From Thiohalomonadales bacterium (GTDB lineage Bacteria; Pseudomonadota; Gammaproteobacteria; RBG-16-57-12), in NCBI GenBank assembly GCA_050295955.1, contig JBNKQQ010000083.1, positions 10,219-74,218 on the forward strand: a stretch of DNA of 64,000 nt, written 5' to 3'. Made by a program: the position numbers and the translations under genes. The stretch's first letter is position 1, and each line of letters starts with the position of its first letter. A model generated the notes under the pieces. It saw nothing but the letters and a program-made list of their open reading frames with translations. It was not told where the DNA came from and did not search any database. Below, piece by piece: positions 1,249-64,000 of this stretch.

Positions 1249-1330
1249 GGAGGACTCCTATGGTGGTAATCCTTAAAGAATAGCGGTAATTTGTAATAAC
1301 TCCTAGCGAGAGAAAATACAAAAAAGAAGT

Positions 1331-1429
1331 ATATTGATGGACAATTTTTTATTTGTTTTGTGTAGGAGCCTGCTTGCAGGCGATTTATTACTCAAGCTAT
1401 CGCCTGCAAGCAGGCTCCTACATCAATAT
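1331..1429. repeat. Inverted REP pair with outer inverted flanks (BIME-like palindromic unit) just upstream of the RAYT gene
   Basis: gtaggagcctgcttgcaggcgat at 1362-1384 and its exact reverse complement at 1399-1421. Outer atattgatg / catcaatat arms. The same REP recurs at 56975-57182. Confidence 0.75.
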
Positions 1430-1456
1430 AAAATATGATAGGGTTATTTTTCCAGG

Positions 1457-1909
1457 ATGGAAAAGGAGTCTACTATGGCAGAAGGGTACCGCCTAAGGAG
1501 AGGTCGCGTCTCGATACCCAACCAAATCTACAGCATAACTACGGTTACCAAAAATAGAGTACCCATTTTTCAGGACTTTTATCGAGCTAGAAAAGCGGTA
1601 CGTATCATTAAACGGCAGCACGATTCAGCATATTTTGATTGCCTCTGTTTTGTTGTCATGCCGGATCATCTACATCTGCTTATCCAGCTAAAAGAAACAA
1701 TCACTCTTGAAAAATCAGTTCAGCAAACTAAGGCGCTTATAAGTCAGCATTTGGGAATGCCTATTTGGCAGAAAGGTTTTTACGATAGAGCGATTCGTAA
1801 AGATGAGGATATTAAAGCTATTGCTCGTTATATCGTCGCTAATCCGCTACGTGCCGGTTTGGTGGGGAGTGTAAGAAAATATCCTCATTGGGATTGTATT
1901 TGGTTATAG
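1457..1909 (+). CDS. REP-associated tyrosine transposase (RAYT, IS200/IS605-like Y1 HUH transposase)
   Basis: HLHLL HUH motif, conserved Y near the C-terminus, ~150 aa. Overall similarity to E. coli RayT/YafM. The REP pair is immediately 5'. Confidence 0.8.
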   Translation: MEKESTMAEGYRLRRGRVSIPNQIYSITTVTKNRVPIFQDFYRARKAVRIIKRQHDSAYFDCLCFVVMPDHLHLLIQLKETITLEKSVQQTKALISQHLGMPIWQKGFYDRAIRKDEDIKAIARYIVANPLRAGLVGSVRKYPHWDCIWL

Positions 1910-2024
1910 GCGCCTTAAGGTCAGTGATCAGCATAAAGGTTGATGAGGTACTTGTGTATTAATTCCGCATCATCCCCCGCAATCAGGTAAAATCCCTCTT
2001 TTGCAACTCCAAAACGAGAGCAAC

Positions 2025-2888
2025 ATGGCGGTAAATTGGTATCCGGGCCATATGCATAAGGCTCAGAAAGAGATGAAGAAGGTGATGCCCAGCGTCGATC
2101 TTGTGATCGAGGTGATGGATGCGCGTATCCCCTATAGTAGTGAAAACCCGACGGTTTCCCGGTTACGGGAAAGTCGTCCCTGTATCAAAATCCTGAATAA
2201 AGAGGATTTGGCTGATCCCGCGGTGACCAAGCAGTGGCTGGCCTATTTTGAACAGGAGAAGGGGGTGAAGGCGATTGCTATGAGCTGTAATCAGCCTAAG
2301 CTGGTGCGGGGCAAGGTGATTGATCTGGCTCGCAAATTGTTACCTCACCGTAATGACGAGTTTCTCAAGCCAATCCGCGCTATGGTGATGGGAATTCCCA
2401 ATGTGGGAAAATCCACACTTATCAACGCATTGGCAGGAAAAAATATCGCCAAAGTGGGGGATGAGCCTGCCGTGACCAAGGCGCAGCAGAAGATTCATCT
2501 GGAGGGTGGAATTGTGCTCTCCGATACCCCTGGGATTCTCTGGCCACGAATGGGTAGTGAGGATTTCGGTTATCGCTTGGCAGTGTGTGGTTCGATCAAA
2601 AACACGGCGATTGAGTATGAAGATGTCGCCCTTTACGCTGCAGAGTATTTTCTTAAGGCCTATCCTGATGCGATCCGTGAACGCTATAAGTTGAAGCAAT
2701 TACCAGCAAATGATATTGCTTTACTTGAGGAGATCGGCCGTAAGCGTGGGGGCTTGCGCCCTGGTGGTCATATAGATCTACATAAGGCATCTGAGGTATT
2801 ACTGCACGATTTTCGCAGTGGGGCCATTGGTCGTCTGAGCCTGGAGACGCCAGCGATGATTCCGCAAAATGAGGCGGATGAAGAGTAA
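2025..2888 (+). CDS. rbgA: Ribosome biogenesis GTPase A (YlqF/RbgA)
   Basis: WYPGHM N-terminus. Circularly permuted GTPase motifs: NKEDL before GIPNVGKSTLIN, then DTPG. The track start at 2001 is probably upstream of the true ATG at 2025. Confidence 0.8.
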   Translation: MAVNWYPGHMHKAQKEMKKVMPSVDLVIEVMDARIPYSSENPTVSRLRESRPCIKILNKEDLADPAVTKQWLAYFEQEKGVKAIAMSCNQPKLVRGKVIDLARKLLPHRNDEFLKPIRAMVMGIPNVGKSTLINALAGKNIAKVGDEPAVTKAQQKIHLEGGIVLSDTPGILWPRMGSEDFGYRLAVCGSIKNTAIEYEDVALYAAEYFLKAYPDAIRERYKLKQLPANDIALLEEIGRKRGGLRPGGHIDLHKASEVLLHDFRSGAIGRLSLETPAMIPQNEADEE

Positions 2889-2915
2889 TGACAATATTTA
2901 TTATTGAGAGAGAAC

Positions 2916-3755
2916 ATGGCAGAAGCAGGTCAGTTTAATACCCTGAAGGTGGTTAAGGCGGTACCGTTTGGCCTCTATCTGGATGGTGGCGAGTGGGGCG
3001 AGATACTGCTGCCCAACAAGTTTGTGCCGCAGGGTACCCAGGTGGGGGATGAGGTAAGGGTCTTTCTCTATTTTGACTCAGAAGATGAGATTATTGCCAC
3101 CACTCAGCGACCCCGAGCGCGCTTGGGGCAGTTTGCCTATCTACAGGTGGTGGATATTAGCCGTCACGGCGCTTTTCTGGATTGGGGATTAGATAAGGAT
3201 TTGCTCTGCCCTAAAGGGGAGCAGCGTCGCCCGATGGAGAAAGACAAATCCTATATCGTTTATCTTAAACAGGATGGGGAAGGGCGTATCGTCGCCAGCT
3301 CCAAGATCGATCGCTTCCTGGATAAATATCGTTCGCGGGTGATGCCTGGGGATGAAGTGAGCCTGCTGATTGCCGAGAGTACCGAGTTGGGCAATAAAGT
3401 AATTATCAATGATGCCTACTGGGGGCTTATTCATAAGGCCGACATCTTCCAGGCACTCCGCTATGGTAAGCGGGTGAAGGGGTATATCAAGGCTGTACGG
3501 GAAGATGGTAAGATCGATGTAACACTGCGCAAAAAAGGTAAAGACAGAATCAGCGAATTGGCTGAACGTATCCTTGAAGAGCTAGAGAAAAAAGGTGGCT
3601 TTCTCCCTTTGCATGATAAGAGTGGTGCGGAGGAGATCAAGCGGGCCTTTGGCGAGAGTAAAAAGAGCTTTAAGAGCGCCATTGGTTACCTTTATAAGCA
3701 GAAGTTGATTACTATTGAAGAGAAGGGTGTACGCTTGGATAGGGGGAAATCATGA
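2916..3755 (+). CDS. S1-like RNA-binding protein, CvfB/YitL family
   Basis: Repeated S1-like segments and C-terminal winged-helix-like region typical of CvfB. The track start is a TTG at 2904. ATG at 2916 preferred. Confidence 0.6.
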   Translation: MAEAGQFNTLKVVKAVPFGLYLDGGEWGEILLPNKFVPQGTQVGDEVRVFLYFDSEDEIIATTQRPRARLGQFAYLQVVDISRHGAFLDWGLDKDLLCPKGEQRRPMEKDKSYIVYLKQDGEGRIVASSKIDRFLDKYRSRVMPGDEVSLLIAESTELGNKVIINDAYWGLIHKADIFQALRYGKRVKGYIKAVREDGKIDVTLRKKGKDRISELAERILEELEKKGGFLPLHDKSGAEEIKRAFGESKKSFKSAIGYLYKQKLITIEEKGVRLDRGKS

Positions 3756-4093
3756 AGATCTATATGCTGGCAGAGCAGAATGAACTCGATGAGATTGCTG
3801 CTGCTTTGGTGGAGCAGATCGAGAGTTGGTTACAGGCCAACCCGGGCCCATGTCAGTTAGTCTCCCCCGGCGATGAAGCTTTTGAAGTGGGACTGATACT
3901 GGAGACCAGTAAAAAAATCGCTTTGAAAGAGCCGGTGAACTTCCTTTATACCTTGGCCAAGGAGTATAAAGCAGAGTTTGTAGTAGGGATGATTAACGAG
4001 GATGGCAGTCGCGAAGATGTCTGCTTCTTCGGGTTCGAAGAGGGGCGGCCAGATATCAACGAGATTGGTCAGTATTTGGGCTTGAAGCGTTAG
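3752..4093 (+). CDS. Hypothetical protein (113 aa), translationally coupled to the upstream gene (ATGA overlap)
   Basis: ORF with 4-nt overlap to cvfB-like gene. No recognisable motif. Confidence 0.45.
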   Translation: MKIYMLAEQNELDEIAAALVEQIESWLQANPGPCQLVSPGDEAFEVGLILETSKKIALKEPVNFLYTLAKEYKAEFVVGMINEDGSREDVCFFGFEEGRPDINEIGQYLGLKR

Positions 4094-4183
4094 TCATCAG
4101 CGTTGTTGATTGGAGAATCTTATGGGGCCGGAATCAAGTTTAGGACGACAAGGTGTAGGAAAAAGGCGGTTCCAAGGGCTTGG

Positions 4184-4927
4184 TTAGCCATTCAGGCGCT
4201 GGATGTAGCGCATCCGCTTCCAAGCCAGTAGGTTGCGGTGTTTGTAAACCCACAGACAGCCTAGATCAAACAGAAAGTAGAACAGCGCGATGCCGATAGG
4301 TGGATTGCCACTGGGCATCCACTCAAAGACCCCAAACCATACCGCTGGCCACTGCCAGCAGCCGAAGTAAGTTCCCACTAACTCCAGATAGGCAACAATG
4401 CAGAACATTACCAGGTAGAAGGTACGATTCTCGCCACTGGCTCGATAAAAGGCCAAAAAGCCGAGAAAGCAGCAGAGACCAAACCAGTCGTTTTGGGTGA
4501 GCCACCAGAAGATGACCAAGCCGCTTGCCAGACTAAGTAACAATGGTTGTAGCGGATTCAGCTGTTTGATTCTGGGGCTACGCATCAGCAGATAGACGGA
4601 AGCGTAAACCACCGAATGCCCCAGGAAAACATAGAGTGGAATATTGCCCAGGCGATACTCATACATCCCCAAAATCAGTGAGAACAGTGTTTCACCAAAC
4701 ATGGCGATAGGGATGCCATAGAGCATCAGCTTGCGTAATCGTTGTGTCGCCTGGCGATAGATAAACAGGAAGAAGGTGAGGCAGATGCCGTTGGCCATCC
4801 ATTGGTTGTAGGTCACACGCTCACTAAGCCACTGACTATCCACCGCAAAGATGGTGGGGATGAACAGCAGAAAGATGGGAAAAACCCAATGGCTAAGTTG
4901 TTTTGGCTGTGAGCAGTTTTCCATCAT
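4184..4927 (-). CDS. Polytopic integral membrane protein of unknown function
   Basis: 247 aa with about 7 hydrophobic helices, W/F/Y rich. Confidence 0.55.
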   Translation of the reverse strand: MMENCSQPKQLSHWVFPIFLLFIPTIFAVDSQWLSERVTYNQWMANGICLTFFLFIYRQATQRLRKLMLYGIPIAMFGETLFSLILGMYEYRLGNIPLYVFLGHSVVYASVYLLMRSPRIKQLNPLQPLLLSLASGLVIFWWLTQNDWFGLCCFLGFLAFYRASGENRTFYLVMFCIVAYLELVGTYFGCWQWPAVWFGVFEWMPSGNPPIGIALFYFLFDLGCLWVYKHRNLLAWKRMRYIQRLNG

Positions 4928-5085
4928 TTTTGCGGTCTAGCTGATTTTTGTTAAGTGCCTGCAGGAGGCTTCTAGGATAGGATTGCTTATCCTACCACGC
5001 TCCATTATCCAGCACAGCTATTATCCAACCCCTCAATTGGTTATAATGCAGCCTATTTTTTCGTCATCTAACCAAAGGTTTTTTC

Positions 5086-6678
5086 ATGCTGACCACCGCC
5101 AATATCACCATGCAGTTTGGTGCCAAACCCCTTTTTGAAGATATCTCCGTCAAGTTTGGCGATGGTAATCGTTACGGCCTGATTGGTGCCAATGGTTGCG
5201 GTAAATCAACACTGATGAAGATTCTGGGCGGCGATCTGGAGCCTTCTGCCGGTAATGTCTCCCTGACCCCTAATGAGCGCTTGGGTAAGCTGAAACAGGA
5301 TCAGTTCGCGTATGAAGAGTACACGGTGCTGGATACGGTGATTATGGGGCACGCGGAACTGTGGGCGGTGAAGCAGGAGCGGGATCGTATCTACTCGCTA
5401 CCGGAGATGACGGAAGAGGATGGCATCAAGGTAGCCGAGCTGGAGGTGGAATTCGCAGAGATGGATGGCTATACCGCTGAATCTCGAGCGGGTGAGCTGC
5501 TGCTGGGGGTGGGGATTCCCATTGAGCAGCATGCTGGCCTGATGAAAGAGGTGGCGCCGGGTTGGAAGCTGCGTGTATTGCTGGCTCAGGCACTATTCTC
5601 TGATCCTGACATTCTTCTGCTGGACGAGCCCACCAATAACCTGGATATTAATACTATCCGTTGGTTGGAAGGGGTGTTGAACCAGCGTAACTCCACCATG
5701 ATTATCATCTCCCACGATCGTCACTTCTTGAACAGTGTCTGCACCCATATGGCGGATTTGGATTATGGTGAGCTGCGTATTTATCCCGGGAATTACGATG
5801 ACTATATGATCGCCTCGACCCAAGCCAGAGAGCGTCTGTTGTCAGACAATGCCAAGAAGAAGGCGCAGATTGCTGAACTACAGCAGTTTGTTAGCCGCTT
5901 CTCTGCCAATGCCTCTAAGGCAAAACAGGCCACCTCCCGTGCGAAGCAGATTGATAAGATCCAGCTGGAAGAGGTGAAGCCATCCAGCCGTGTTAATCCC
6001 TTTATCCGTTTTGATCAGGAGAAGAAGTTGCATCGCCTAGCTGTCGAGGTGACTGATCTGGCGAAAAGTTTTGATGATGAGACCCTGTTTAATAACCTCA
6101 ACCTGATGGTAGAGGCGGGTGAGCGTATTGCTATCATTGGACCTAATGGTATCGGTAAAACCACACTGTTGCGCTGCTTGGCCAGTGATCTGGAGAGTGA
6201 TAGCGGTGAGGTAAAGTGGGCCGAGAATGCCCAAGTAGGCTATTTTGCTCAGGATCATGCGGCGGATTTTGCTGAAGATAAAAATCTCACTGAATGGATG
6301 GTTCAGTGGAGCAAGGATGGGGATGATGATCAGGTGATTCGTGGGACCTTAGGCCGTATGCTATTTGGTCGTGATGAGCTGAATAAATCCGTGAAGGTGC
6401 TTTCCGGTGGTGAACAAGGGCGTATGCTGTTTGGTAAATTGATCCTGCAAAAGCCCAATGTCCTGCTAATGGATGAACCTACCAACCACTTGGATATGGA
6501 GTCTATTGAATCATTGAATATGGCACTGGAAAATTATCCTGGCACCTTGTTGTTTGTCAGCCACGACCGGGAGTTTGTCTCATCTATCGCGACGCGGATT
6601 ATTGAAATGTCGCCAGATGGTGTGAGGGACTTCCATGGCAGTTACGATGACTATCTGCGTAGCCAGGGCATCGAATAG
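5086..6678 (+). CDS. ybiT: ABC-F family ATPase YbiT (two ABC ATPase domains, no TMD)
   Basis: 530 aa. Near colinear with the E. coli YbiT N-terminus ([42 protein letters not shown]...). Two Walker A motifs and LSGG signatures. Confidence 0.85.
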
Positions 6679-7996: not shown

Positions 7997-8974
7997 TCAA
8001 CCTTTTGAAATTAAACCCTCTTTCCCGAAGATCACTTCCACTCTCAAGAGAAAGCCCCAGTTGTCTTTAAAATTATTCTCACGATCAAAGGAGACGCGAG
8101 GAGAGAGTTCGTAAAATAACCATTCACGATGAATACGTTTACGATAGCGGATATCCAGAATATAGCTATCCACTTCATTACCGTGGTAGTCGCTGCCGTT
8201 AATACCCAAGGTATAGGCGAGACCCCGCCGTAGATCTAATTTTCGATATAGTGAGATATTTTGACTCCATAGGTAAGCTTGAAGTTCATCCCACCAAGTA
8301 CCGGTTGTGGAAAAGCGTAGCAGCCGTTGCTTTGCTAAGGGATGTTCGATATCCAGTATGCTGCGAGCGCCTGCTCCCGTGGATTTGAATTCAAATAGTG
8401 TCTGGGTAAAGCGTACCTGAAGGGAAGAGAACTGCCACTCTTTACGTCCCCTGACTCGTATAAATGGGTCTATCGGTGTATGCAGTTTAACACCCACATC
8501 GGTACTAAGCCGCCATGCCTCTGTCTCTTTAAGAATGGCTTCCAGCACGGCAGATTGCTGATTATCACCAGTGGGGTTTTCAATGGCAGAGTTTTCTTGT
8601 TCCTGCTGAGTGCTTTGAGTCTCTTCAGGGGTACTTTCAACGGTAAAGCGCAAACGTTCCTTGCTGTGGGGCATGATTAGCTTGGCACGAAAAGTCTGTT
8701 TAAAATCGACGACACCTCCCTCCTGAAAAAGAGTATCCAGTGAGAGGCGGAAGGTGCTCTTATTGGACTCTAATTCGCTACGCTCATCAGCAAAAAAGTT
8801 GTCGATAGTTCGTGGGAGGTAAAGTAGACCTTCACTAATGTAATCGTGGGTGGTGTTGAGTGTGCTGGAAAAGTAAAGGCTGTCCTCTTCTTCGGTGACA
8901 ACCGCCTCCGTTGCGACGGCATTAAGCGGTAGCAGTAGGAGGAGTACAGCCTTTAAGAAAATAGGTACCTTCAT
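7997..8974 (-). CDS. Secreted or outer-membrane-associated hypothetical protein
   Basis: N-terminal signal peptide. 325 aa. Amphipathic beta-like C-terminal segments ending in F. No known motif. Confidence 0.5.
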   Translation of the reverse strand: MKVPIFLKAVLLLLLPLNAVATEAVVTEEEDSLYFSSTLNTTHDYISEGLLYLPRTIDNFFADERSELESNKSTFRLSLDTLFQEGGVVDFKQTFRAKLIMPHSKERLRFTVESTPEETQSTQQEQENSAIENPTGDNQQSAVLEAILKETEAWRLSTDVGVKLHTPIDPFIRVRGRKEWQFSSLQVRFTQTLFEFKSTGAGARSILDIEHPLAKQRLLRFSTTGTWWDELQAYLWSQNISLYRKLDLRRGLAYTLGINGSDYHGNEVDSYILDIRYRKRIHREWLFYELSPRVSFDRENNFKDNWGFLLRVEVIFGKEGLISKG

Positions 8975-9006
8975 TTCGCCTTTATCGGCCGAAATGAAGG
9001 CGAGGA

Positions 9007-9813
9007 TTAGTGGTGATGGTGCTGAGAAGCATCTGGTGGCTGAGGTGCCTGCACTTCGGGAGCATGATGGTGTGACTCCATCTCCTGTTGCTGTGGCGAA
9101 GGGGTGGCCATCTCCATTACATGAGAGGCGTGCGCATTGCCATTGTCGTGACTGTGATCGCCATGGAGAAGGTGGCGGGTGGCGGTGAAAATCGCTAGGA
9201 TAATCAGGGCAATGGCCGCAACCTTAAGCAGAATACCACGAAGCTGCGGTGTCAGTTTCCGCATCAGATAGGGCGTGGCAAGCATTGATGGGATAGTTCC
9301 CAGACCAAAGGCAAACATGATCAGAGCCCCTTGCTCCAGGCTATTTGCTGTCAGGCTTAGCGCCAGAGCGGCATACACCAGTCCACAAGGAAGCAAGCCG
9401 TTCAGCCAACCCACCATCAACCAGGGGACCAAGCTCTCCTGCTGATGGGCTTGCTTGCTCCAACGTCCTAAGCCGCTGATACGCATGATGGTTGCAGTAA
9501 AGCGGCTCAGTGGATCGGGTAGCCAGCCTCCTAGATTCAGGGCAAACAGCACCATGACCGCTGCGGCGAAATAGCTCAACCAGACCTGTATATTCTGCAT
9601 CTCCCCACCGTGCAGGCTAAGTCCGATTGCGGCAATCAGTACGCCCAATAATACATAGCTGCTGACGCGAGCACCTTGATAGGCAATCAGCCCTGGCCAC
9701 CAGAGTTTTTCACGACTCATGGTGATGGCACTGACTAGGCCGCCACACATGCCAATGCAGTGCAGGCTGCCGAGAAGTCCGATGGTAAAGGCGCTGGCGA
9801 GCAGGCTATCCAC
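9007..9813 (-). CDS. DsbD_2/UreH-like polytopic membrane protein with His-rich C-terminal tail (possible Ni/Co or metal handling)
   Basis: LGSLHCIGMCGG motif characteristic of the UreH-like/DsbD_2 transmembrane family. C-terminus HGDHSHDNGNAHASH...HHHH. Confidence 0.55.
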   Translation of the reverse strand: MDSLLASAFTIGLLGSLHCIGMCGGLVSAITMSREKLWWPGLIAYQGARVSSYVLLGVLIAAIGLSLHGGEMQNIQVWLSYFAAAVMVLFALNLGGWLPDPLSRFTATIMRISGLGRWSKQAHQQESLVPWLMVGWLNGLLPCGLVYAALALSLTANSLEQGALIMFAFGLGTIPSMLATPYLMRKLTPQLRGILLKVAAIALIILAIFTATRHLLHGDHSHDNGNAHASHVMEMATPSPQQQEMESHHHAPEVQAPQPPDASQHHHH

Positions 9814-55018: not shown

Positions 55019-55774
55019 ATGTCTCAAAAAGTGATGTCATCACAGTCCCTATTAAAAGAACCCGTTGTCGAGTTCAAGGGCTCCAGCTTTACCCTTACCA
55101 TCCTGGTAATCTCCAGCTTCGATCTTGATACCATTGTTGAAGATATCAAAAAGCGCCTTGCTCAGGCGCCACGCTTTTTCCTGCACGCCCCGGTGGTGGT
55201 GGACCTCAATCCGCTGAAAGAGCAGCAGGGAGAACTGGACTTTGCCGCATTAGCAGAGCAGTTGCGAGCGCTGGAACTGGTACCCGTTGGCGTTTGCAAT
55301 GGCAATCCCTGCTTCTATGAAGCTGCCGTAGCCGCTGGCTTCGCTGTACTGCAGTCTGGTCCACAGCCACGCGCAGTCCAGCGGGAAGAGCCCAAGCCAG
55401 CCCCACAGCCTGAGCCTAAAGTGGTTGAGCAGCCCAAGGCGGAACCACTGGTGATCCACAAACCAGTACGCTCTGGCCAACAGATCTACGCCAGAGGCCG
55501 AGACCTGATCCTGATGGCCCAGGTGAATGCTGGGGCTGAAGTGATTGCCGATGGCAACATCCACGTCTATGCTCCTTTGCGAGGCCGAGCGCTGGCTGGT
55601 GTTCAAGGGGATACCAATGCCCGTATTTTCACCCTTAATTTCGGCGCTGAAATGGTGGCAATTGCTGGCAACTACCGTGTATTTGAAGAGCAGCCCGCCA
55701 CCGATGTGGCAGGCAAAACCAGTCAAGTTTATCTCGATGGCGAACAACTGATTGTTGCGCCATTGGTTTCATAA
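55019..55774 (+). CDS. minC: Septum site-determining protein MinC
   Basis: MinC N- and C-domains (C-terminal beta-helix GNIHVYAPLRG). Followed by minD and minE. Confidence 0.9.
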   Translation: MSQKVMSSQSLLKEPVVEFKGSSFTLTILVISSFDLDTIVEDIKKRLAQAPRFFLHAPVVVDLNPLKEQQGELDFAALAEQLRALELVPVGVCNGNPCFYEAAVAAGFAVLQSGPQPRAVQREEPKPAPQPEPKVVEQPKAEPLVIHKPVRSGQQIYARGRDLILMAQVNAGAEVIADGNIHVYAPLRGRALAGVQGDTNARIFTLNFGAEMVAIAGNYRVFEEQPATDVAGKTSQVYLDGEQLIVAPLVS

Positions 55775-55796
55775 AATTCCTAGGGGAGGTTAAGCC

Positions 55797-56606
55797 TTGT
55801 CAAAGGTAATCGTTGTAACATCCGGAAAAGGTGGCGTAGGCAAGACCACCAGTAGCGCCAGTATCGCGACCGGTCTGGCGATGAAAGGCCACAAGACTGC
55901 AGTCATCGACTTCGACGTGGGCCTAAGAAACCTGGATCTGATAATGGGGTGTGAGCGCCGCGTGGTATACGATCTGGTTAATGTTATCCACGAAGAGGCA
56001 ACACTTAAACAAGCCCTGATTCGTGACAAGCGCTGTGATCAACTCTACATCCTGCCAGCCTCACAAACCCGCGACAAAGATGCTCTGACCACTGAAGGGG
56101 TTGAGCGGGTGCTGGAAGAGCTGAAAAAAGAGTTCGACTACATCGTTTGTGATTCACCTGCCGGTATCGAGCAGGGCGCTGTGATGGCACTCTACTTTGC
56201 CGATGAAGCCTTCATCGTCACCAACCCAGAAGTCTCCTCGGTGCGTGACTCTGACCGCATACTTGGCATCCTGAATGCTAAATCCAAGCGTGCCCAAGAG
56301 GGCGCAGAGCCTATTAAAGAGCACCTGCTCATCACCCGCTACTCACCTAACCGTGTTGAAACCGGTGAGATGCTGAGCATTGATGACATCAAAGAGCTGC
56401 TGGGTATCGATCTGATTGGTGTGATTCCTGAATCAGAAGCCGTACTACAAGCTTCCAACTCCGGCACCCCAGTGATCCATGATCAACAGAGCACCAGTGG
56501 CCAAGCCTACGCTGATGTTGTGGATCGCTTCCTGGGAGAGGAACGCCCGCTACGCTTTATCGAGCCTGAGAAGAAGGGCCTGTTGAAACGACTGTTTGGG
56601 ACCTAA
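55797..56606 (+). CDS. minD: Septum site-determining ATPase MinD
   Basis: VVTSGKGGVGKTT deviant Walker A. C-terminal amphipathic helix. TTG start. Confidence 0.95.
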   Translation: MSKVIVVTSGKGGVGKTTSSASIATGLAMKGHKTAVIDFDVGLRNLDLIMGCERRVVYDLVNVIHEEATLKQALIRDKRCDQLYILPASQTRDKDALTTEGVERVLEELKKEFDYIVCDSPAGIEQGAVMALYFADEAFIVTNPEVSSVRDSDRILGILNAKSKRAQEGAEPIKEHLLITRYSPNRVETGEMLSIDDIKELLGIDLIGVIPESEAVLQASNSGTPVIHDQQSTSGQAYADVVDRFLGEERPLRFIEPEKKGLLKRLFGT

Positions 56607-56608
56607 CC

Positions 56609-56869
56609 ATGTCACTACTCGATTATCTATTGCGAAAAAAGAAAAAGCCCAGCGCCTCGGTCGCCAAAGAGCGTCTACAGATCATCCTGGCCCGAGAGCA
56701 CGGTAATGACGAACCAGACTTCCTGCCAGAACTTAAACGGGAACTGCTGGAAGTGATCAGCAAATACACCAACATTGATTTGGATGAGATCAGCGTCAAT
56801 CTGGATAAAGAGGACGACTGCGAAATCCTTGAAGTCAACGTAGTGTTGAATAAGAAGGATGCGGCGTAA
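56609..56869 (+). CDS. minE: Cell division topological specificity factor MinE
   Basis: MSLLDYLLRKKKK N-terminus. 86 aa. Confidence 0.95.
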   Translation: MSLLDYLLRKKKKPSASVAKERLQIILAREHGNDEPDFLPELKRELLEVISKYTNIDLDEISVNLDKEDDCEILEVNVVLNKKDAA

Positions 56870-56960: not shown

Positions 56961-57200
56961 TTCTAAAAGTGTGTGTAGGAGCCTGCTTGCAGGCGATGGG
57001 CTTTTATATCGCTATTGCTGTAGGAGCTTGCCCTGCAAGCGAACCCACTCAATTCTAATAAGCGTGTGTAGGAGCCTGCTTGCAGGCGATGGGTTTTTAT
57101 ATCGCTACTGCTGTAGGGGCTTGCCCTGCAAGCGAACCCACTCAATTCTAATAAGCGTGTGTAGGAGCCTGCTTGCAGGCGATGGGTTTTCATATCGCTA
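56961..57200 (+). repeat. Tandem BIME-like array: ~91-bp units each containing REP (gtaggagcctgcttgcaggcgat) and variant REP' (gtagg[a/g]gcttgccctgcaagcga)
   Basis: Units begin at ~56961, 57051 and 57143. REP is identical to the pair at 1362-1421. A further REP variant lies at 57528-57550. Confidence 0.8.
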
Positions 57201-57204
57201 CCGC

Positions 57205-57571
57205 GATGAAGTGGATATCACTTCGTGAGGTTTTATTGGCATCGGGATTCCGTCCCGATAGCCGGGTCACTTTTTTACCGTAAAAAAGTAACCAAAAAAG
57301 CTCTCCCGAAAAATGCGGTCGCCAACAACGCGACTTCCCTCGGTTCTCACTATGAACAGCACTCCTGGCAACTCGCTTCGCTCAAACATGCCATCCGCTT
57401 AATCTGTTCATCGCTGCGAGCCTCGGCACATTTGAACGGGGATGAAAGGCATGGCATATTCCGCTAACGCGGAAGAAAAAGTCATTCTGCACTTGATTCA
57501 GAATCCAGGCTAATTCTAAAAAGCGTATGTGGGAGCCTACTTGCTGGCGATGGGTTTTATATCGCTACCGC
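57205..57571 (+). repeat. Structured repeat element, copy L1 (hairpin-rich, ~200-bp conserved core)
   Basis: Hairpins gaagtg-gatat-cacttc, atcggga-ttccg-tcccgat, cttttttac-c-gtaaaaaag. Core ggtcgccaacaacgcgacttccctcggttctcac...caaacatgccatccgc...gcgagcctcggc...catttgaacgg. Confidence 0.75.
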
Positions 57572-57900
57572 GATGAAGTGGATATCACTTCGTGAGGTTT
57601 TGTTGGCATCGGGATTCCGTCCCGATAGCCGGGTCACTTTTTTACCGTAAAAAAGTAACCCAAAAAACTCCCCCGAAATATGGTCGCCAACACCGAGACT
57701 TCCCTCGGCTCTCGCTACGAATGGCGCTACTGGCAACTCGCAAACTACGCTCAAACATGCCATCCGCTCTTTCCGTTCGTAGCTACGAGCCTCGGCAGTA
57801 TTTGAACGGGAATGAACGGCGTTTATATATTTCGCTAACGCGAAAGATGAAGAGCCGCTTCGCGGAGTAATTGAATGGGTGCTTGCGACCCGTTGTAGCC
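57572..57900 (+). repeat. Structured repeat element, copy L2
   Basis: Same architecture as L1 with indels and paired substitutions. Putative ORF frames differ between copies, so noncoding. Confidence 0.75.
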
Positions 57901-58090
57901 ATTGGCAGGCAGCTAATTGAACGTCAGCCATTGGTAAAAATTAACAATCAATATATACATTCAAATAGATTGGGTTGACTAGGTATCCCATGCAAGCAAA
58001 GTTGCAAATTGGCTTAATGATCAATAGTGCTCTTGGAAGGAACCTCCTTCCGATAACACTACTTGCACCGGATTGCTGTTGGTGAATGAA

Positions 58091-59173
58091 TTACGAATGG
58101 GGGGGCTCAAGTCTAGGTGAACAAACCCCTGATGTAGGCATCGTAATTCCCCATGGATAAGCCGGAGTTTCTCCTCGTTGATACTGGTAAACTGTTACCT
58201 TAGGTAAATTTCGTTTGTCATAAAGTGTTCCAAAGCGGAATACCAAACTGCTCGGCCCAGCGATAAAAAGGTGGATGTGGTTAATTCCGTAACTGTCCAA
58301 TTTAGTGAGCATTTCAAGAAATTGCCTGCCTAATGCTCGCTGCTTGTCTTCTGACCAGTGAGAGTCTGGCCCAGCATTCTGCAATTCGAGATGAATTAAT
58401 GGAATATTAGGTAGTTTCTTCTGAATCTCAGGTAAATTGGCTATGTATGATATAGAAATGGCTAAGACTGCCTCTGTTGATTCTTGGTCAAGTTGTGTCC
58501 CAAGATATTTAGTATCAAAGCGATTTCCATCGTCAGCTTTTTCAAGCTGCTGCCATCTTTTTTTATGTCGCTCCCAATCAAAGATATGAATTTCCGATTC
58601 ATCATCTAGAATTGTCCCTGCTAGAAAAGTTAGAGGAACAGGGGCCAGTCCTCCAAATACAGTTGTAATATCATTTCTATTGTTTCCAGCTTCATATTGG
58701 TCAAGCTGATAAGTGATATGTACTAATTTATCTAGAGCAACTTGAGGTTCAACGATATAGCCATCTCTAATATTTTGCCTGAGATCTACTAGTATGCTAT
58801 TACGTCTTCCCTCAAAGTAGGGGGGGAGCGATTCATTTAAAGGAGTACCGGCTGAATCGCGAAGCCCTCTTACTTCAATAACATTTACTCTTTTGCGCGA
58901 TAACGCTCGATATTCCATGGTATGTCTAATTATTTCCCATGGTATGGCTATTGATATTAATGCAATACCGAGGAAGTAAGTTGTATAGATCAAGAGTGAA
59001 GGAATATTTCCCTCAATATCGATATCTAATTTGAAAGAGTCTCCACTTTCAACAGAAAAGGTAATATCTGCAGCAGCAGCTAGAGTGAGTAGAAATACCC
59101 CTGCTCTTAGAAAATACAATGCAGGTGACTTTTTACGAATAATCCAGTATATGATTTGTTTAATTATTGTCAC
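58091..59173 (-). CDS. CBASS-like effector: N-terminal 2-TM domain fused to a SAVED-like (CARF-related) sensor domain
   Basis: Two N-terminal TM helices. C-terminal ~270 aa ending HIHLFIAGPSSLVFRFGTLYD, resembling the SAVED C-terminal motif. Immediately downstream of the nucleotidyltransferase. Confidence 0.5.
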   Translation of the reverse strand: MTIIKQIIYWIIRKKSPALYFLRAGVFLLTLAAAADITFSVESGDSFKLDIDIEGNIPSLLIYTTYFLGIALISIAIPWEIIRHTMEYRALSRKRVNVIEVRGLRDSAGTPLNESLPPYFEGRRNSILVDLRQNIRDGYIVEPQVALDKLVHITYQLDQYEAGNNRNDITTVFGGLAPVPLTFLAGTILDDESEIHIFDWERHKKRWQQLEKADDGNRFDTKYLGTQLDQESTEAVLAISISYIANLPEIQKKLPNIPLIHLELQNAGPDSHWSEDKQRALGRQFLEMLTKLDSYGINHIHLFIAGPSSLVFRFGTLYDKRNLPKVTVYQYQRGETPAYPWGITMPTSGVCSPRLEPPHS

Positions 59174-59195
59174 GTCTTTAGTTACCTCCCCGCTT

Positions 59196-60710
59196 CTATT
59201 GGATATTCACTATAAATTGCCCACTACGCGCTGCTAGCAGTCCATCTTTTACTATAAAGCATTCTATGCTGTGCATACCTTTATAGGAGGTGGACTCCTG
59301 TCTTGTTAATGAGTTGCAGTCTCTAGAAAAGTCACCCCGTAATCCACAAGCCAATTTAGCTTCGTTACCAGTATTTACCACCTGCCAGTGTACTTTATAT
59401 GGAGGTGGAATATTTGTTGTAGCCTCAAACTTTAAATCGCAGTTTTTCGGCAAGGCTTCACCGTTGCTATCAAATCGGTATGGCCCATATTTATTCTTTC
59501 TATATGTAGCCTTTGCAATTTGAACATTCCCTTGTACTGAAGTCTTCCAAGGGGGAGTTTGTTTATGGGGAGGATTTAGAGCTAACTGTTTGCTTGAATG
59601 ATGGTGTATGTCACTGTAATTTACGTTGTTCTTTGAAAGTGATGCATCGATTAGTTTTTTTCCTAATCTAGGTGTGAGGGTATTAGCTGCAGATTCCTCA
59701 TTTAGTGCATTAGCTGCACTGTAGAAATCTTCTCTCGCTTGGGCGAGCCACTCATAGAATGCACCTTTCCTTTCAGGATATTGTTGCCAGCGGTCAGAAA
59801 AATTTTCAGCCGGGTCCGTCGGGTTGGGTATCCATGACACTCCATTACGTGTCTCTATAAAGCTATCCATGCGTTGAAGAATACTATACAGTGCCCCTGA
59901 TATAGTCGGTTCTTGCTGGTATGCATGACCTGCCAATGTGGTTAAAATAATGGATATGGGCTTTTCATCCAATCGTTTAGCAAACATAGTATTCCTATGA
60001 TGCTTGAGAAGTTGAATAGCTGACTGTAGTGGTGTACGAACCTTATAGTCTGGTATATCTTCAACGCTAGCATTAATTGCATAAGCAAGTTCCTTTTTTC
60101 TCTGCTCAAAAATCACAGTCATTCGGGATTTGAACCAGTCGCTATATCCCTTAGGGTTGCTATGTGGCCAATAAGAAGTGATGCATTTGTAATATGGGTG
60201 ATCCCTATCAGTAATGGCGATTGCAGATTCAGACCATTTCGAAGAAAATCCTCTGCTAGCAAGAAGATATCTCATATCCTCCCCGTCAGGGATTGCAGGC
60301 AGTGTATCCAAATGAAATTGTGCACCATCAGCATAGTTTTGGGTCCAACAGCGTCTGCCTTCATCAGGTATTTTCATTTCATGTGCTTTCGCATACTCCT
60401 TTAACTCAAAACCCAAGGCTTCCTTCAATTGATGTTGTGTTAATGAGCTTTTTGACAAAGTCAGTTCACAAACTAGATCAATGTCATAATCGTCATCACC
60501 TGAGTGGGGTTTAATGACTGTTCCTAAACGAAATGATCCTTGAACGTATACCTGTGGATTTGCATCTTTAAGCTTGGAGCTATCTCTGTTTAGCCATTTA
60601 CCAACTGATGTATAGCTGCGCTCTGCTGCTTCATATCTGCTGGGAGATATTTGTAGTGCTTCTACTGCATTTTCAAGTAGCTTTTCAGTGTGTTTCTTAA
60701 TGTTTGTCAT
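59196..60710 (-). CDS. SMODS/CD-NTase-type (cGAS/DncV-like) nucleotidyltransferase with ~300-aa C-terminal extension (possible AGS-C sensor)
   Basis: QGSFRLGTVIKPHSGDDDYDIDLV = GS...[DE]x[DE] Pol-beta NTase motif, in SMODS-like N-terminal context (..Y..V..WL). 504 aa. Confidence 0.6.
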   Translation of the reverse strand: MTNIKKHTEKLLENAVEALQISPSRYEAAERSYTSVGKWLNRDSSKLKDANPQVYVQGSFRLGTVIKPHSGDDDYDIDLVCELTLSKSSLTQHQLKEALGFELKEYAKAHEMKIPDEGRRCWTQNYADGAQFHLDTLPAIPDGEDMRYLLASRGFSSKWSESAIAITDRDHPYYKCITSYWPHSNPKGYSDWFKSRMTVIFEQRKKELAYAINASVEDIPDYKVRTPLQSAIQLLKHHRNTMFAKRLDEKPISIILTTLAGHAYQQEPTISGALYSILQRMDSFIETRNGVSWIPNPTDPAENFSDRWQQYPERKGAFYEWLAQAREDFYSAANALNEESAANTLTPRLGKKLIDASLSKNNVNYSDIHHHSSKQLALNPPHKQTPPWKTSVQGNVQIAKATYRKNKYGPYRFDSNGEALPKNCDLKFEATTNIPPPYKVHWQVVNTGNEAKLACGLRGDFSRDCNSLTRQESTSYKGMHSIECFIVKDGLLAARSGQFIVNIQ

Positions 60711-60729
60711 ATATTCTTAACCTCTCCAA

Positions 60730-60963
60730 TCAATCTTTAGGTGGATATGGGTCATTGCCATGACTATCGCTACTGGCAATACGTCCATTTTTATTGTGAA
60801 TGCGCAATTCAGTGCCTTGATTGCGACTGGTTTCACGCCCTTTGCTGATAGCATCAGCTTTTGTTTTATGGTGGCTGCTTGCCCGTTGAGCTTCACCACG
60901 TTTAACATCCCAGCCACCTTGAGGGTTGGATACGATGTGATGCGTTTTAGGACCTTTTGGCAT
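60730..60963 (-). CDS. DUF2188 small protein, immediately upstream of and co-oriented with the nucleotidyltransferase
   Basis: KGPKTHHIV.NP.GGWDVKR...RASSHH.TKADAI..GRE.SRNQGTEL.IH.K.GRI...DSHGNDP.PPKD matches DUF2188 consensus. Confidence 0.65.
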   Translation of the reverse strand: MPKGPKTHHIVSNPQGGWDVKRGEAQRASSHHKTKADAISKGRETSRNQGTELRIHNKNGRIASSDSHGNDPYPPKD

Positions 60964-61269
60964 AATAATGCTCCTTTGCTTTATATATTTAACTAATTTT
61001 TAATCGATTATTAAGGGTTTCCTCAATTGCATACCTAATAGCAATTAGAGATAAATATCCCCTAGTGCTTATATATACTGCTGAGAATAAAAAAGTGGCG
61101 ATTTTTTGTAAAAACTTATAAGTCACTGTTAATGAAGGATAAAATTTTGTGCCGAATTCATTTTGTTAATTTGGCCTGTTGTAGATATAATTATTCTTAT
61201 ATAAATTTTATGGTGAATTTTTTCTCCACTTTTGCATTTTGAACAGTATTAGGGATATAGGAGGAAGTT

Positions 61270-61842
61270 TTGAGCGACCAAGCACATTACACTGAAATTG
61301 AGGTTGAGGAACTTATTCAAGGGCTTACTGATTCTCAAATAGCCAAGATGCTGCATGTTTATCGAAATAAGGGATGTCAGCAAAGGGCGGGACTATCAGG
61401 GCATGATGTTTTTCAAAATGCTGTAATGAAAGCTTTATCAAAAAAGAATTGCTGGAAAAAGGGAATCCCTGCTGAAGCTTATCTAATTATGCTAGGAAAA
61501 AATTATATAAGTAATGAGGAGAAAAAATATTCACGGAATGTTTATGAATCACAATCTGATAATTTACAGATTGAGGCACTTCCTATAACAGCTGTAGACT
61601 GCTCTGAACACACTCATGAGTTCATAATTCAGGAATGGGTTGGTAAAATTGTTAGCCTCTTTGCTGATGATAAAGATGCTTCTTGTTTTTTGAAAAGCAA
61701 GTTGGCACAGGCCAAAAAAGCTAAAATACTCGCTTTATGTAGATTTACAGATCAGGCATATCGAAATGTTGAAAAAAGGATTAAAGATAAGGCAAGGAAG
61801 AGATTTCCTGGTGGTGTGCCGTTTAATGAGGCAACGCTATGA
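61270..61842 (+). CDS. Hypothetical protein (190 aa), first gene of a divergent tri-cistronic operon
   Basis: TTG start with GGAGGA RBS. No recognisable domain. Its stop overlaps the next start. Confidence 0.4.
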   Translation: MSDQAHYTEIEVEELIQGLTDSQIAKMLHVYRNKGCQQRAGLSGHDVFQNAVMKALSKKNCWKKGIPAEAYLIMLGKNYISNEEKKYSRNVYESQSDNLQIEALPITAVDCSEHTHEFIIQEWVGKIVSLFADDKDASCFLKSKLAQAKKAKILALCRFTDQAYRNVEKRIKDKARKRFPGGVPFNEATL

Positions 61843-62276
61843 GTGCTGAATTTCTTAAAATGATCAATGAGTACATTATCGATTCAATTATTGAATGTGA
61901 TGATGATGAGTATTTGTCAAATATAGGAAAGGATGGTTATTCATCTCAAGAGGACATTGACTTTGCTAGATCATTTATCCAAGCCACTGTTAGGGAGCTA
62001 AGGCAAGAGCGCTTAAATGCTAGTAGAGAGCGTTATGCTCAATCAAAAAGCCAAAAAAGTGGTGTATTAGATACCATTTCTACAACAAAGCCTCTCCAAG
62101 AGATGCTTACTCAGATTATTTCAGTGATGCAAAGTGAAGAGCAGGTGCCTGATGGGTTACTTATCGCTTTTAGGGAACAAGGGAAAACTGGTAGTGAAGA
62201 GGGTATTCGCAATATATGGAAATCTCTCGTTGAGCTTGGATTAATTGATCCTGAGAAGGATGAAAATTCGAAATGA
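61839..62276 (+). CDS. Hypothetical acidic protein (145 aa), second gene of the operon
   Basis: ATGA overlaps on both sides. No recognisable domain. Confidence 0.4.
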   Translation: MSAEFLKMINEYIIDSIIECDDDEYLSNIGKDGYSSQEDIDFARSFIQATVRELRQERLNASRERYAQSKSQKSGVLDTISTTKPLQEMLTQIISVMQSEEQVPDGLLIAFREQGKTGSEEGIRNIWKSLVELGLIDPEKDENSK

Positions 62277-63040
62277 GGTTCAAGCAACAACCCAATGATA
62301 TTTTGAAAAGGCTTGGCATGTATGAGCCTGAAGATATTGATTTGGATTTAATTGCATTTGATTTGGGTGCTGAGGTGAAAAGAGCATCGTTGAATGATTG
62401 TGAAGGGAATATCCTAGGAACGTCAACGAAGGCAATTATTACAATTAATAAGATTTCTAGAATTGAAAGGCAGCGTTTTTCATTAGGACATGAGTTGGGA
62501 CACTGGGTAAATGATCGGGGAAAAAATTTAACTTATCGTTGTACTACGGACGATATGCGGCAACGCTCTATGATTCAAGAAGATTTTCGCCAAAATAAAG
62601 AAGTGCGTGCAAATCAATTTTCAGCAGAGCTCCTTATGCCTGACTTCATATTCAAAAGGTATGCTGAAAATTTGGATATTATCCTAAAGACAGCAAGATA
62701 CCTTGCAAATACTTTTAATGTGTCACTCACAAGTACCGTTATAAGGCTTGTTGAGTTATCTGAGAGGCCATGCATGATTATTTGCTGGGACAAGATGGGT
62801 AAACGGCGCTGGTTCTCACGTAACGATATTATTCCTGAAAAAATATGGCCACATGAAAGAATTTTTCATCCTCAAGAAGTATTCAAGCTTTCAGATGGAG
62901 TAGAGGTGGATGCTGATAAATGGATCAACTTGGCAGGATCAGAGAATTACACCGTAATCGAAAGTATATTTTCAAATACATATGACTTTTTATCACTCAT
63001 TTGGTGGAAGGATGAAGAGCAGCTAGCTCACTATCTATGA
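62273..63040 (+). CDS. ImmA/IrrE-family zinc metallopeptidase (CapP-like) with C-terminal Cys/His-containing domain
   Basis: HELGHW (HExxH) at the N-terminal peptidase core. Downstream E in QFSAELLMP. C-terminal CMIIC ... HERIFH. Confidence 0.6.
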   Translation: MRFKQQPNDILKRLGMYEPEDIDLDLIAFDLGAEVKRASLNDCEGNILGTSTKAIITINKISRIERQRFSLGHELGHWVNDRGKNLTYRCTTDDMRQRSMIQEDFRQNKEVRANQFSAELLMPDFIFKRYAENLDIILKTARYLANTFNVSLTSTVIRLVELSERPCMIICWDKMGKRRWFSRNDIIPEKIWPHERIFHPQEVFKLSDGVEVDADKWINLAGSENYTVIESIFSNTYDFLSLIWWKDEEQLAHYL

Positions 63041-63084
63041 GCTGCTACCTCAGATGATTCTCTACCTATAGCTATGACTACTTA

Positions 63085-63420
63085 GTACCGCATGCGGCCA
63101 TCCAATTTTTCCTACAAAGCGGTTCTTTTTCTTTTGCGTTAGCAAAACATAAAATGCTTTTCACATCCCGTTCAAATGCAGCCGAGGCTCGCAGCTGTGG
63201 ACGGATAGAGCGGATGGCATGTTTGAGCGTAGTTTGCGAGTTGCCAGGAGCACCGTTCGCAGTGAGAACCGAGGGAAGTCGCGTTGTTGGCGACCGGTAT
63301 TTTCGGGCCTTCTCTTTGATTACTTTCTCTTGGCCGTTCAAGAGAAAGTCATTAGCTGTCGGGCTACCCCCGACATCTCATTAATCGTCACGCAGTGACA
63401 CATAATCTTACCGCAGAGCC
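63085..63420 (-). repeat. Structured repeat element, copy R1 (inverted relative to L1/L2)
   Basis: The reverse complement matches the L-copy core (ggtcgccaacaacgcgacttccctcggttctcac...). Hairpins actttctcttg-aacggc-caagagaaagt and tgtcggg-ggtag-cccgaca replace the L-copy hairpins at the same positions. Confidence 0.75.
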
Positions 63421-63489
63421 AGTAGGGCAGGCTCACTACAGTGATAGTGATATAAAAATCGCGACTCGATTACTGTATTGCATTTCTGT

Positions 63490-63835
63490 GAGTTGAAGCC
63501 TGGATTCTGAATCAAGTTCAGAATGACTTTTTCTTTCGCGTTAGCGAAACATTAAATGCAGTTAATTCCCGTTCAAATACAGCCGAGGCTCGCAGCTGTG
63601 GACGGATAGAGCGGATGGCATGTTTGAGCGTAGTTTGCGAGTTTCCAGGAGCACCGTTCGCAGTGAGAACCGAGGGAAGTCGCGTTGTTTGCGACCTGTA
63701 TTTTCGGGCGGCCTTCTCTTTGATGACTTTCTCTTGGCCGTTCAAGAGAAAGTCATTAGCTGTCGGGTTACCCCCGACATCTCATTAATCGTCACGCAGT
63801 GACACATAATCTTACCGCAGAGCCAGTAGGATGCG
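63490..63835 (-). repeat. Structured repeat element, copy R2
   Basis: Near identical to R1. Confidence 0.75.
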
Positions 63836-63939
63836 GTGATAACCGCATCGATCGAGACAGAATCATTACACGACTGATGCGGTTCGTTCCTCACCACATC
63901 CTACATTGAATGACCGCTCCAGCCGCTTTTGGCCATCTA

Positions 63940-64000
63940 ATTTATCTCGCGTAGCGGTTCTTCTTTTTTCGCGTTAGCGGAATATAAAATGCCTTTCCTA
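63940..64000 (-). repeat. Structured repeat element, copy R3 (partial, truncated by window end)
   Basis: cttcttttttcgcgttagcggaatataaaatgc parallels the R1/R2 starts. Confidence 0.5.

Follow-up and report, generated by a model that had tools for sequence, protein, structure and literature searches.

Described systems closest to the locus

An open question about abortive-infection systems is how they stay silent and are later turned on. Three classes of regulator are known, CapW/BrxR, CapH with CapP and CapK with CapS, and all of them act by de-repression. Here, we analysed a 64,000-nucleotide stretch of DNA (the window) from contig JBNKQQ010000083.1 of a Thiohalomonadales bacterium, in which an operon encoding a cyclic oligonucleotide-based anti-phage signalling system (CBASS) is divergent from a triad of genes encoding a sigma-like protein, an acidic protein and a CapP-type peptidase, a triad that bears on this question. 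The reading that we favour, by a modest degree of confidence, is that this island represents a Type I CBASS of horizontal origin that is controlled by a portable three-gene transcriptional switch acting by sigma release. The switch model was inferred from gene anatomy, comparative genomics and promoter architecture, and the function of the core from homology to characterised systems.

The CapH/CapP pair shares the peptidase with our triad. CapP cleaves CapH between F82 and R83, an R83A mutant being uncleavable, and the CapP of Escherichia coli MS115-1 is switched on by single-stranded DNA (Lau et al. 2022, EMBO J; bioRxiv 10.1101/2022.04.27.489752). The same study recorded the presence of a sigma factor at 24 CBASS loci ("Sigma-70 present") without further analysis, and the accession gaps in its Table S1 suggest the same gene order as in our triad. 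A literature search found no paper linking CapP with an anti-sigma factor or with an extracytoplasmic function (ECF) sigma factor, and no mechanism published for the sigma-containing loci. The triad is an uncharacterised portable sigma/anti-sigma-like/CapP cassette with its own predicted promoters, mentioned in the literature only in passing.

Other systems share single aspects of the model proposed here. In Myxococcus xanthus, DdvS/DdvA of a CBASS-CRISPR island likewise uses an ECF-type sigma factor that turns on CBASS after proteolysis of its anti-sigma factor (PMC11506125). DdvA is a zinc-binding (ZASD) anti-sigma factor that crosses the membrane once, bears a TPR-CHAT domain in the periplasm and is lost through regulated intramembrane proteolysis (RseP), a trigger unlike that proposed here, whereas the corresponding protein of the island is soluble, lacks both a transmembrane helix and the HxxxCxxC motif, and is accompanied by a dedicated cytoplasmic CapP peptidase. 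In IrrE/DdrO of Deinococcus and ImmA/ImmR of Bacillus ICEBs1 and phage, an M78 peptidase cuts a transcription regulator upon DNA damage, as in our model; there the substrate is a helix-turn-helix (HTH) repressor, whereas the inferred substrate in the island is an anti-sigma factor. CapW/BrxR, a WYL repressor, and CapK/CapS, a kinase with a STAS-wHTH repressor (PMC13373217), resemble the triad as portable "Cap" regulators that stand upstream of immune operons of various kinds and respond to single-stranded DNA or DNA damage; their proteins and mechanisms are unrelated to those of the triad.

Organization of the locus and its Type I CBASS operon

The AT-rich island spans ~5.2 kb and contains six genes forming two divergent operons of three genes each, which have in common a 306-bp intergenic region (60964-61269, GC 0.275). 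Its genes and predicted promoters are the following:

58091-59173, minus strand: Cap14-type effector, 360 aa (Saf_2TM and SAVED in Pfam, PADLOC, PDB, hydropathy)
59196-60710, minus strand: CD-NTase fused to a C-terminal AGS-C Ig-like domain, 504 aa (Pfam, PADLOC, PDB)
60730-60963, minus strand: DUF2188 protein of 77 aa, whose gene heads the minus-strand operon (Pfam, 5.8e-21)
61076-61098, minus strand: predicted sigma-dependent promoter oriented towards the CBASS operon, CCACTTTTTTATTCTCAGCAGTA (-35-like GCCAC with T-tract, -10-like CAGTA)
61226-61248, plus strand: predicted sigma-dependent (autoregulatory) promoter oriented towards the triad, CCACTTTTGCATTTTGAACAGTA, beginning 44 nt before the start codon of the sigma-like gene
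61270-61842, plus strand: divergent ECF-like sigma factor, 190 aa, assigned from weak profile matches and homology to sigma relatives
61839-62276, plus strand: acidic all-helical protein, 145 aa, candidate anti-sigma factor and CapP substrate, with ATGA overlaps with both neighbours
62273-63040, plus strand: CapP-type M78 metallopeptidase, 255 aa (Pfam, PADLOC, PDB, residue positions)

The initial annotation of the window had located all six open reading frames (ORFs) correctly and had called the island AT-rich against flanks of ~50% GC. A windowed comparison agrees: GC over 57921-63087 is 0.388, versus 0.493 +/- 0.010 in equal-sized windows elsewhere (minimum 0.466; z = -10.9), and sliding values lie at 0.33-0.42 over 58.2-63.0 kb with flanks at ~0.50, marking the island as foreign in composition. 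The description of the two operons as convergent had to be reversed, as they diverge from the common intergenic region.

That the minus-strand operon is a Type I CBASS of textbook form is nearly certain. In Pfam, the 504-aa protein matches SMODS, DncV-like_NTFase and AGS_C (5e-29), and in PADLOC it matches the cyclase PDLC00770 over its full length (2.4e-208). Its catalytic residues G58-S59, D76/D78 and D135 are intact, the GS...DxD...D pattern aligning with that of 9woo. Among solved proteins, this cyclase is closest to 9woo ("cyclic GMP-AMP synthase", 1e-74) and to SmCdnG (8hsb, 1.7e-31), on which ground we assign it as clade-G-like. The cyclase gene lies on the same strand as that of the effector, with 22 bp between them. 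The 360-aa effector carries an N-terminal Saf_2TM domain (Pfam, 4.4e-22) and a C-terminal SAVED sensor (1.8e-43), matches the PADLOC 2TM effector (1e-123) and the SAVED chains of PDB entries 9om7 (6e-17) and 9wq2 (8e-14), and has two transmembrane helices predicted from hydropathy at residues ~17-39 and ~57-82. Among the six island ORFs, Pfam and PADLOC detected no Cap2 or Cap3 (Type II), no HORMA or TRIP13 (Type III) and no Type IV accessory gene.

The CBASS core is thus ordinary, one more member of a well-studied family. Fusions of a CD-NTase to AGS-C make up ~40% of Type I CBASS, AGS-C being thought to modulate phage sensing, and Cap14 (Saf-2TM-SAVED) is known as a nucleotide-gated chloride channel. 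The island shares with BtCdnB-Cap14 (PMC10402079) and with a panel of Type I systems (10.1101/2023.05.21.541620) the two-gene core and the cyclase with an AGS-C Ig-like domain, and like them it is without Cap2/Cap3 or HORMA/TRIP13 genes. The cyclase of BtCdnB-Cap14 is a CdnB, unlike the clade-G-like enzyme of the island, and, unlike the compared Type I systems, the island operon begins with DUF2188 and appears to be placed under control of the triad.

The initial annotation had already recognised a CBASS module composed of a CD-NTase and a SAVED-2TM effector, and had named a generic Pol-beta nucleotidyltransferase or a missing SAVED domain as findings that would speak against it; the Pfam, PADLOC and PDB searches above found both SMODS and SAVED. 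What it took for a long form of SMODS is no special form, the extra length being the AGS-C fusion. Its remark that the gene combination is not a textbook operon does not apply to the CBASS core, which including DUF2188 is a known combination, and it does apply to the non-canonical triad.

A CapP-type peptidase

The 255-aa protein matches Peptidase_M78 in Pfam (2.8e-16) and capP in PADLOC (6.4e-50), where its residues 3-245 align to positions 5-241 of the 242-position model; weaker PADLOC matches are to RmrA, PDC-M69B and PD-Lambda-2_B. Its only PDB match is the crystal structure of Thauera CapP (7t5t, 2.8e-8), in an alignment that ends at residue 171 and includes HELGH and the cysteine. The residues H73-E74-xx-H77 and the third zinc ligand E110 correspond to H96/E97/H100/E129 of the Thauera enzyme, and the cysteine-switch residue C90 lies 17 residues past the first histidine, the same spacing as from H96 to C113 in Thauera CapP. 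This cysteine-switch loop occurs in 33% of CapPs. These matches and positions identify the 255-aa protein as a genuine CapP, in which both the HExxH motif and the cysteine switch are intact. The HTH-like linker in the middle and the GAF domain at the C terminus that characterise CapP may be present as well, the PADLOC match running over the full length and the PDB alignment stopping at residue 171. As CapP does elsewhere, the triad that contains it stands upstream of, and divergent from, the adjacent immune operon.

A probable, divergent ECF-like sigma factor

The 190-aa protein consists of a sigma-2-like N-terminal domain, a disordered linker (residues 82-112) and a sigma-4-like C-terminal domain, which is basic (pI 9.6), made of three helices and marked by a near-invariant helix, YRNVEKRIKDKxRKRFP. 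It gives weak ECF matches in NCBIfam and to SigH in the PDB, and taken alone it scores below curated thresholds. A HMMER search with the family profile retrieved 453 relatives, and the distant full-length relatives match the Pfam families Sigma70_r2 (27/80), Sigma70_r4_2 (5/80) and Sigma70_ECF (4/80). The family profile and the profile of the distant relatives were aligned by hhalign over 191 columns with 99.95% probability. Since its relatives match Sigma70 families, the two profiles align in this manner and the C-terminal domain is basic, we place the 190-aa protein in the ECF/sigma-70 superfamily, from whose other members it has diverged strongly. The sigma-2 domain that characterises ECF (group 4) sigma factors is present in it.

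Two distant relatives, P0189 (366 aa) and P0284 (333 aa), carry an N-terminal response-regulator receiver domain, the reverse of the PhyR order. These fusions indicate that the same module can take a different input, which fits a regulated transcription factor.

An acidic protein without an HTH domain

The three triad genes overlap by ATGA at both junctions. The 145-aa product of the middle gene has a pI of 4.8. It contains no HTH of the XRE type found in CapH, no transmembrane segment and none of the features of known anti-sigma factors, neither an ASD fold nor the HxxxCxxC zinc motif (ASD/ZASD class I, NepR, CnrY and others were considered). Its family profile retrieved noise only from the PDB (calmodulin, penicillin acylase, E >= 0.03). 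A110 and R112 are invariant in 70/70 family members, residue 111 being F in 55 and A in 15, and this A110-(F/A)111-R112 motif sits where the C-terminal helices of the protein start. Because the invariant motif resembles the F82|R83 site of CapH, which stands where the C-terminal oligomerisation domain of CapH begins, we propose A110-F111|R112 as a candidate CapP cleavage site. Whether the 145-aa protein is both the anti-sigma factor and the CapP substrate appears to us an evenly balanced matter from these features.

One remote triad (L037; loci carrying homologues of the triad are designated by such numbers) has a 127-aa middle protein, at 5570-5953 on the plus strand, with a borderline match to PG_binding_1 (8e-5, 23.2 bits against a cutoff of 23), which is probably spurious and would be unexpected in a cytoplasmic regulator.

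The triad is set apart from CapH and from known anti-sigma factors because it has no HTH and no known anti-sigma fold, while the hallmarks of CapP are present and those of an ECF sigma factor are found indirectly. CapH/CapP (Lau et al. 2022) and the island have in common an M78 zinc peptidase with a cysteine switch, divergent and upstream of CBASS, Bub and other immune operons, a presumed single-stranded DNA or DNA-damage trigger, and a substrate gene (here a candidate) directly upstream of capP; the conserved (F/A)-R motif of the island recalls the F82|R83 site of CapH. Unlike CapH/CapP, the island has no XRE-type HTH repressor: the middle protein is acidic, all-helical and of no known fold, and an ECF-like sigma factor is integral to the cassette as its third gene. 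In place of the operator of CapH/CapP, the island has two oriented, -35/-10-type predicted promoters, and its predicted logic is sigma release.

These assignments refine what the initial annotation had seen on the plus strand. Its ImmA/IrrE peptidase is the M78 enzyme described above, and the two products that it left as unknowns can be assigned as an ECF-like sigma factor and its acidic, non-HTH partner. The echo of CapH/CapP that it perceived is right for CapP and does not extend to CapH, as no CapH-type HTH repressor was found in the island.

A pair of divergent promoter motifs

In every locus of the core family, the intergenic region holds two divergent copies of GCCAC(T/A)TTT-N10-CAGTA(T). 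The copy facing the sigma gene begins 44-72 nt before its start codon, and the copy facing the immune operon ~100-150 nt before the first operon gene. The window contains exactly two matches, both with 0 mismatches, for 0.14 expected in 64 kb even with one mismatch allowed. When 18 loci (307 kb, both strands) were scanned with the strict motif, 31/31 matches fell <=400 bp upstream of a sigma gene and none elsewhere; the copies missed by the strict motif have 1-2 mismatches and keep the same frame.

The -35-like boxes abut in a palindrome-like manner in the 6a and Bub loci (listed below). In the window and in L002 they lie ~90-150 bp apart and each keeps its own CAGTA at unchanged spacing, which fits two promoters rather than one operator; a single palindromic operator formed by the two GCCAC boxes was rejected on this ground. 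In remote cassettes both copies change together, to TGTCCG-N16-GAGTAT (L011), TGTCCG-N16-GCGCAT (L015), TGTCCG-N16-GAGCAT (L034) and, in L033, a pair of the form CGTyAA...CCGCTTTAT. The boxes vary together with the sigma lineage.

Classic ECF promoters have a -35 element that ends in AC and is followed by a T-tract, and a -10 element containing GTA, for example TGAAAC-N16-CGTA for sigma-W of Bacillus subtilis, and a promoter copy ahead of the sigma factor's own operon is the usual form of ECF autoregulation. A bipartite promoter motif ahead of both its own operon and the target genes, as expected of an ECF sigma factor, was found here. Judged by the motif and the homology described above, the 190-aa protein probably acts as a sigma factor at these bipartite motifs.

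Between the two predicted sigma-type promoters there is also a good sigma-70-like promoter (61163-61191, plus strand, TTGTTA-17-TATAAT, 10/12), oriented towards the triad, from which the cassette could be expressed at a basal level. A generic scan for sigma-70 promoters and terminators was not informative, with 12 promoter-like sites against 16 expected and no enrichment in this AT-rich region.

A portable cassette beside diverse immune operons

In all homologues, close and distant, the order is the same: a sigma-like protein (~188-209 aa), a middle protein (127-151 aa) and an M78 peptidase (249-264 aa), divergent from the adjoining operon. The operons found opposite the triad are:

Type I CBASS: the window and L001
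Type II CBASS (DUF2188, HNH-SAVED effector, CD-NTase, Cap2, Cap3): L002-L004 and L017
Bub operon (Multi_ubiq, DUF6791-ThiF, BubE): L005
"6a"-type operon (MBL hydrolase, E2-E1-JAB fusion, transmembrane protein), the commonest: L006-L010 and eight metagenome loci
DUF2188 with DarT and NADAR: L034/L035
DUF2188 with small ORFs, and a ThsB-like TIR gene downstream: L011-L013
Operons without any match to Pfam or PADLOC defence families: L021, L027 and L037

The core family is rare. The sigma-like protein accounts for 21 clusters among 5.8 billion, and five loci are present among 185,579 species representatives, all in marine Gammaproteobacteria. A tblastn search of 72,556 plasmids with the sigma-like and 145-aa proteins gave no match. 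Taken together, the conserved arrangement and the paired motifs suggest that the cassette very probably regulates the adjacent operon.

The operons without a match comprise genes at 2801-3691 (minus strand) in L021, at 3532-4470, 2240-3166 and 1737-2243 (all minus strand) in L027, and at 234-4806 (minus strand) in L037. Their place next to the cassette makes them candidates for new immune systems through guilt by association.

Further observations concern the DUF2188/small-ORF loci. In L011, ORFs of 86 and 94 aa directly follow DUF2188; in L012, a Tn3-family transposase and a resolvase (2213-5931) stand between DUF2188 and the same two ORFs, so that the insertion splits the presumed operon. 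The remote cassette of L011 is embedded in a mobile defence island (features at 3262-4676 and 8193-9188) that also contains RnlA/RnlB, several resolvases and the ThsB-like TIR protein (PADLOC, 1e-110), whose gene immediately follows that of the M78 peptidase and shares its strand.

Proposed switch and alternative explanations

In the model that we propose, infection would lead the CdnG-like CD-NTase to make a cyclic dinucleotide, phage sensing being probably tuned by the AGS-C domain of the enzyme. Binding of this dinucleotide to the SAVED domain of the Cap14-type effector would open or assemble a membrane channel and cause abortive infection. In resting cells, the 190-aa sigma factor would be held inactive by the co-translated acidic 145-aa protein, and the cysteine switch would keep CapP off. 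DNA damage or phage-derived single-stranded DNA would activate CapP, as in E. coli MS115-1, and active CapP would cut the 145-aa protein, possibly at the invariant A-F|R motif. The freed sigma factor would then steer RNA polymerase to the two back-to-back GCCACwTTT-N10-CAGTA promoters, one driving DUF2188-CdnG-Cap14 and the other the cassette itself, giving positive feedback followed by a reset through newly made anti-sigma factor. The switch would thus work by activation through sigma release and not by de-repression through repressor cleavage.

Several points weigh against this model. Lau et al. listed "capH" in sigma-containing loci, so that in at least a few triads a genuine HTH repressor may be encoded by the middle gene, with the sigma factor perhaps having another role. 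The sigma-4 assignment is weaker than that of sigma-2, Sigma70_r4_2 being matched by only 5/80 relatives; known anti-sigma classes include nothing that resembles the 145-aa protein; and the remote cassette L037 did not show a clear duplicated motif. A repressor role is conceivable for the middle protein and likewise for the sigma-like protein, and both versions have to be considered. If the canonical CapH/CapP logic applied, the 145-aa protein would be a cryptic CapH-like repressor bound to the inverted GTGGC/GCCAC boxes and cut by CapP, the sigma-like protein being an accessory. The position of the middle gene directly upstream of capP, as in the capH-capP order, the annotation of "capH" in the 24 sigma-containing systems of Lau et al., the abutting, palindrome-like boxes of the 6a/Bub loci and the likeness of the AFR motif to the F|R site of CapH all speak for it. 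With no XRE-type HTH detected in the 145-aa protein and with the boxes well separated in the window and L002, we regard it as unlikely.

If instead the 190-aa protein were the repressor, it would be a two-domain DNA-binding protein, or a PhyR-like mimic, acting on the bipartite sites and itself cut by CapP or serving as the partner of the 145-aa protein. This proposal would accommodate the same bipartite sites, but it is at odds with the full-length homology of the 190-aa protein to relatives that score Sigma70_r2, r4_2 or ECF, with the ECF-typical -35/-10 layout, spacing and T-tract of the motif, and with its occurrence at the right distance and orientation ahead of both operons, including the sigma factor's own gene; it seems to us improbable. 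A triad merely co-located with CBASS, as an independent defence or toxin-antitoxin-like module (M78-based, like RmrA or PD-Lambda-2), would explain the weaker PADLOC matches of the peptidase and the clustering of defence genes in islands. Yet capP is the best PADLOC match by 40 orders of magnitude, and the triad is always divergent from and directly adjoining the operon, with which it shares the duplicated promoter motif whatever that operon encodes, and such independence is highly improbable.

Returning to sigma release, we tentatively suggest, at somewhat less than even confidence, that the triad represents a fourth, mechanistically distinct class of portable "Cap" regulator, in which an M78 protease activated by DNA damage would destroy a soluble anti-sigma factor of new fold and free a private, highly divergent ECF-like sigma factor that turns on the neighbouring immune operon (CBASS I/II, Bub/6a, DarTG, Thoeris-like TIR and others) from co-evolving promoters, with DUF2188 as a cassette-linked component. 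If so, the cassette would add positive control, through sigma release by a damage-sensing protease, and orthogonal promoter/sigma pairs would move with it among at least seven kinds of immune operon. The model lends itself to direct testing, since it comprises three small proteins, two promoter boxes and a single candidate cleavage site, all of them defined. The cassette could also guide the search for new immune operons by guilt by association, as with the neighbours in L021, L027 and L037, and supply synthetic biology with compact orthogonal parts, namely sigma factors, anti-sigma factors and proteases.

DUF2188 as a possible part of the cassette

The assignment of the 77-aa protein to DUF2188 in the initial annotation agrees with its Pfam match; it further matches the PADLOC candidate PDC-S16 (4.9e-34), and no solved relative was found in the PDB at E <= 1. 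DUF2188 has been noted next to CBASS and next to CapH/CapP in earlier literature. It is the first gene past the cassette's divergent promoter in the window (60730-60963), L002 (7428-7661), L011 (6053-6277) and L034 (4623-4886), and the operons that it heads are unrelated (Type I CBASS, Type II CBASS, DarT-NADAR, small ORFs). The Bub/6a loci do not contain it. Instead of being part of the individual defence systems, DUF2188 may be a component of the regulatory cassette. A role as the DNA-binding regulator was considered and rejected, since the Bub/6a loci keep the promoter motif without DUF2188.

Borders and surroundings of the island

The island lies between two repeat arrays:

57184-57920, no strand: left flanking repeat array, two tandem ~368-nt units (repeat search and blastn of the unit against the window)
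63088-63997, no strand: repeat array on the right flank, with two to three units of ~400 nt, up to the end of the window (repeat search and blastn)

The two arrays are mutually inverted, with arms of 130-144 nt and 87-88% complementarity, in accordance with the inverted structured repeats of the initial annotation. Its statement that the island has no integrase holds for the side that can be seen: no integrase occurs within the island itself or in the interval that separates it from minCDE, and only the left side is visible because the window stops at 64000. Blastn found no further copies of the ~370-400-nt unit elsewhere in the 64-kb window, and an Rfam scan of flanks and island matched no family. 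A short-read assembly, evidently from the same organism, breaks exactly at the flanking repeats: L001 (5304 bp) is the island only, and L016, from the same assembly, stops just past minE. Because of these breaks, the flanking repeats are probably multi-copy in the source genome. Each ~370-400-nt unit contains internal palindromes, for example GGGTCACTTTTTTACCGTAAAAAAGTAACC and ATGACTTTCTCTTGGCCGTTCAAGAGAAAGTCAT, and a miniature inverted-repeat transposable element, an array like repetitive extragenic palindromic (REP) sequences or a recombination hotspot are candidates for what these repeats are.

Upstream of the island lie minCDE (55019-56869) and then a REP-like 93-nt tandem, present in 2.5 copies directly after minE (56967-57200), with partial copies at 1359-1422. 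This tandem contains GC-rich palindromes, GGAGCCTGCTTGCAGGCGA, and the spurious ORFs that occur there translate as "CRSLLAGDG".

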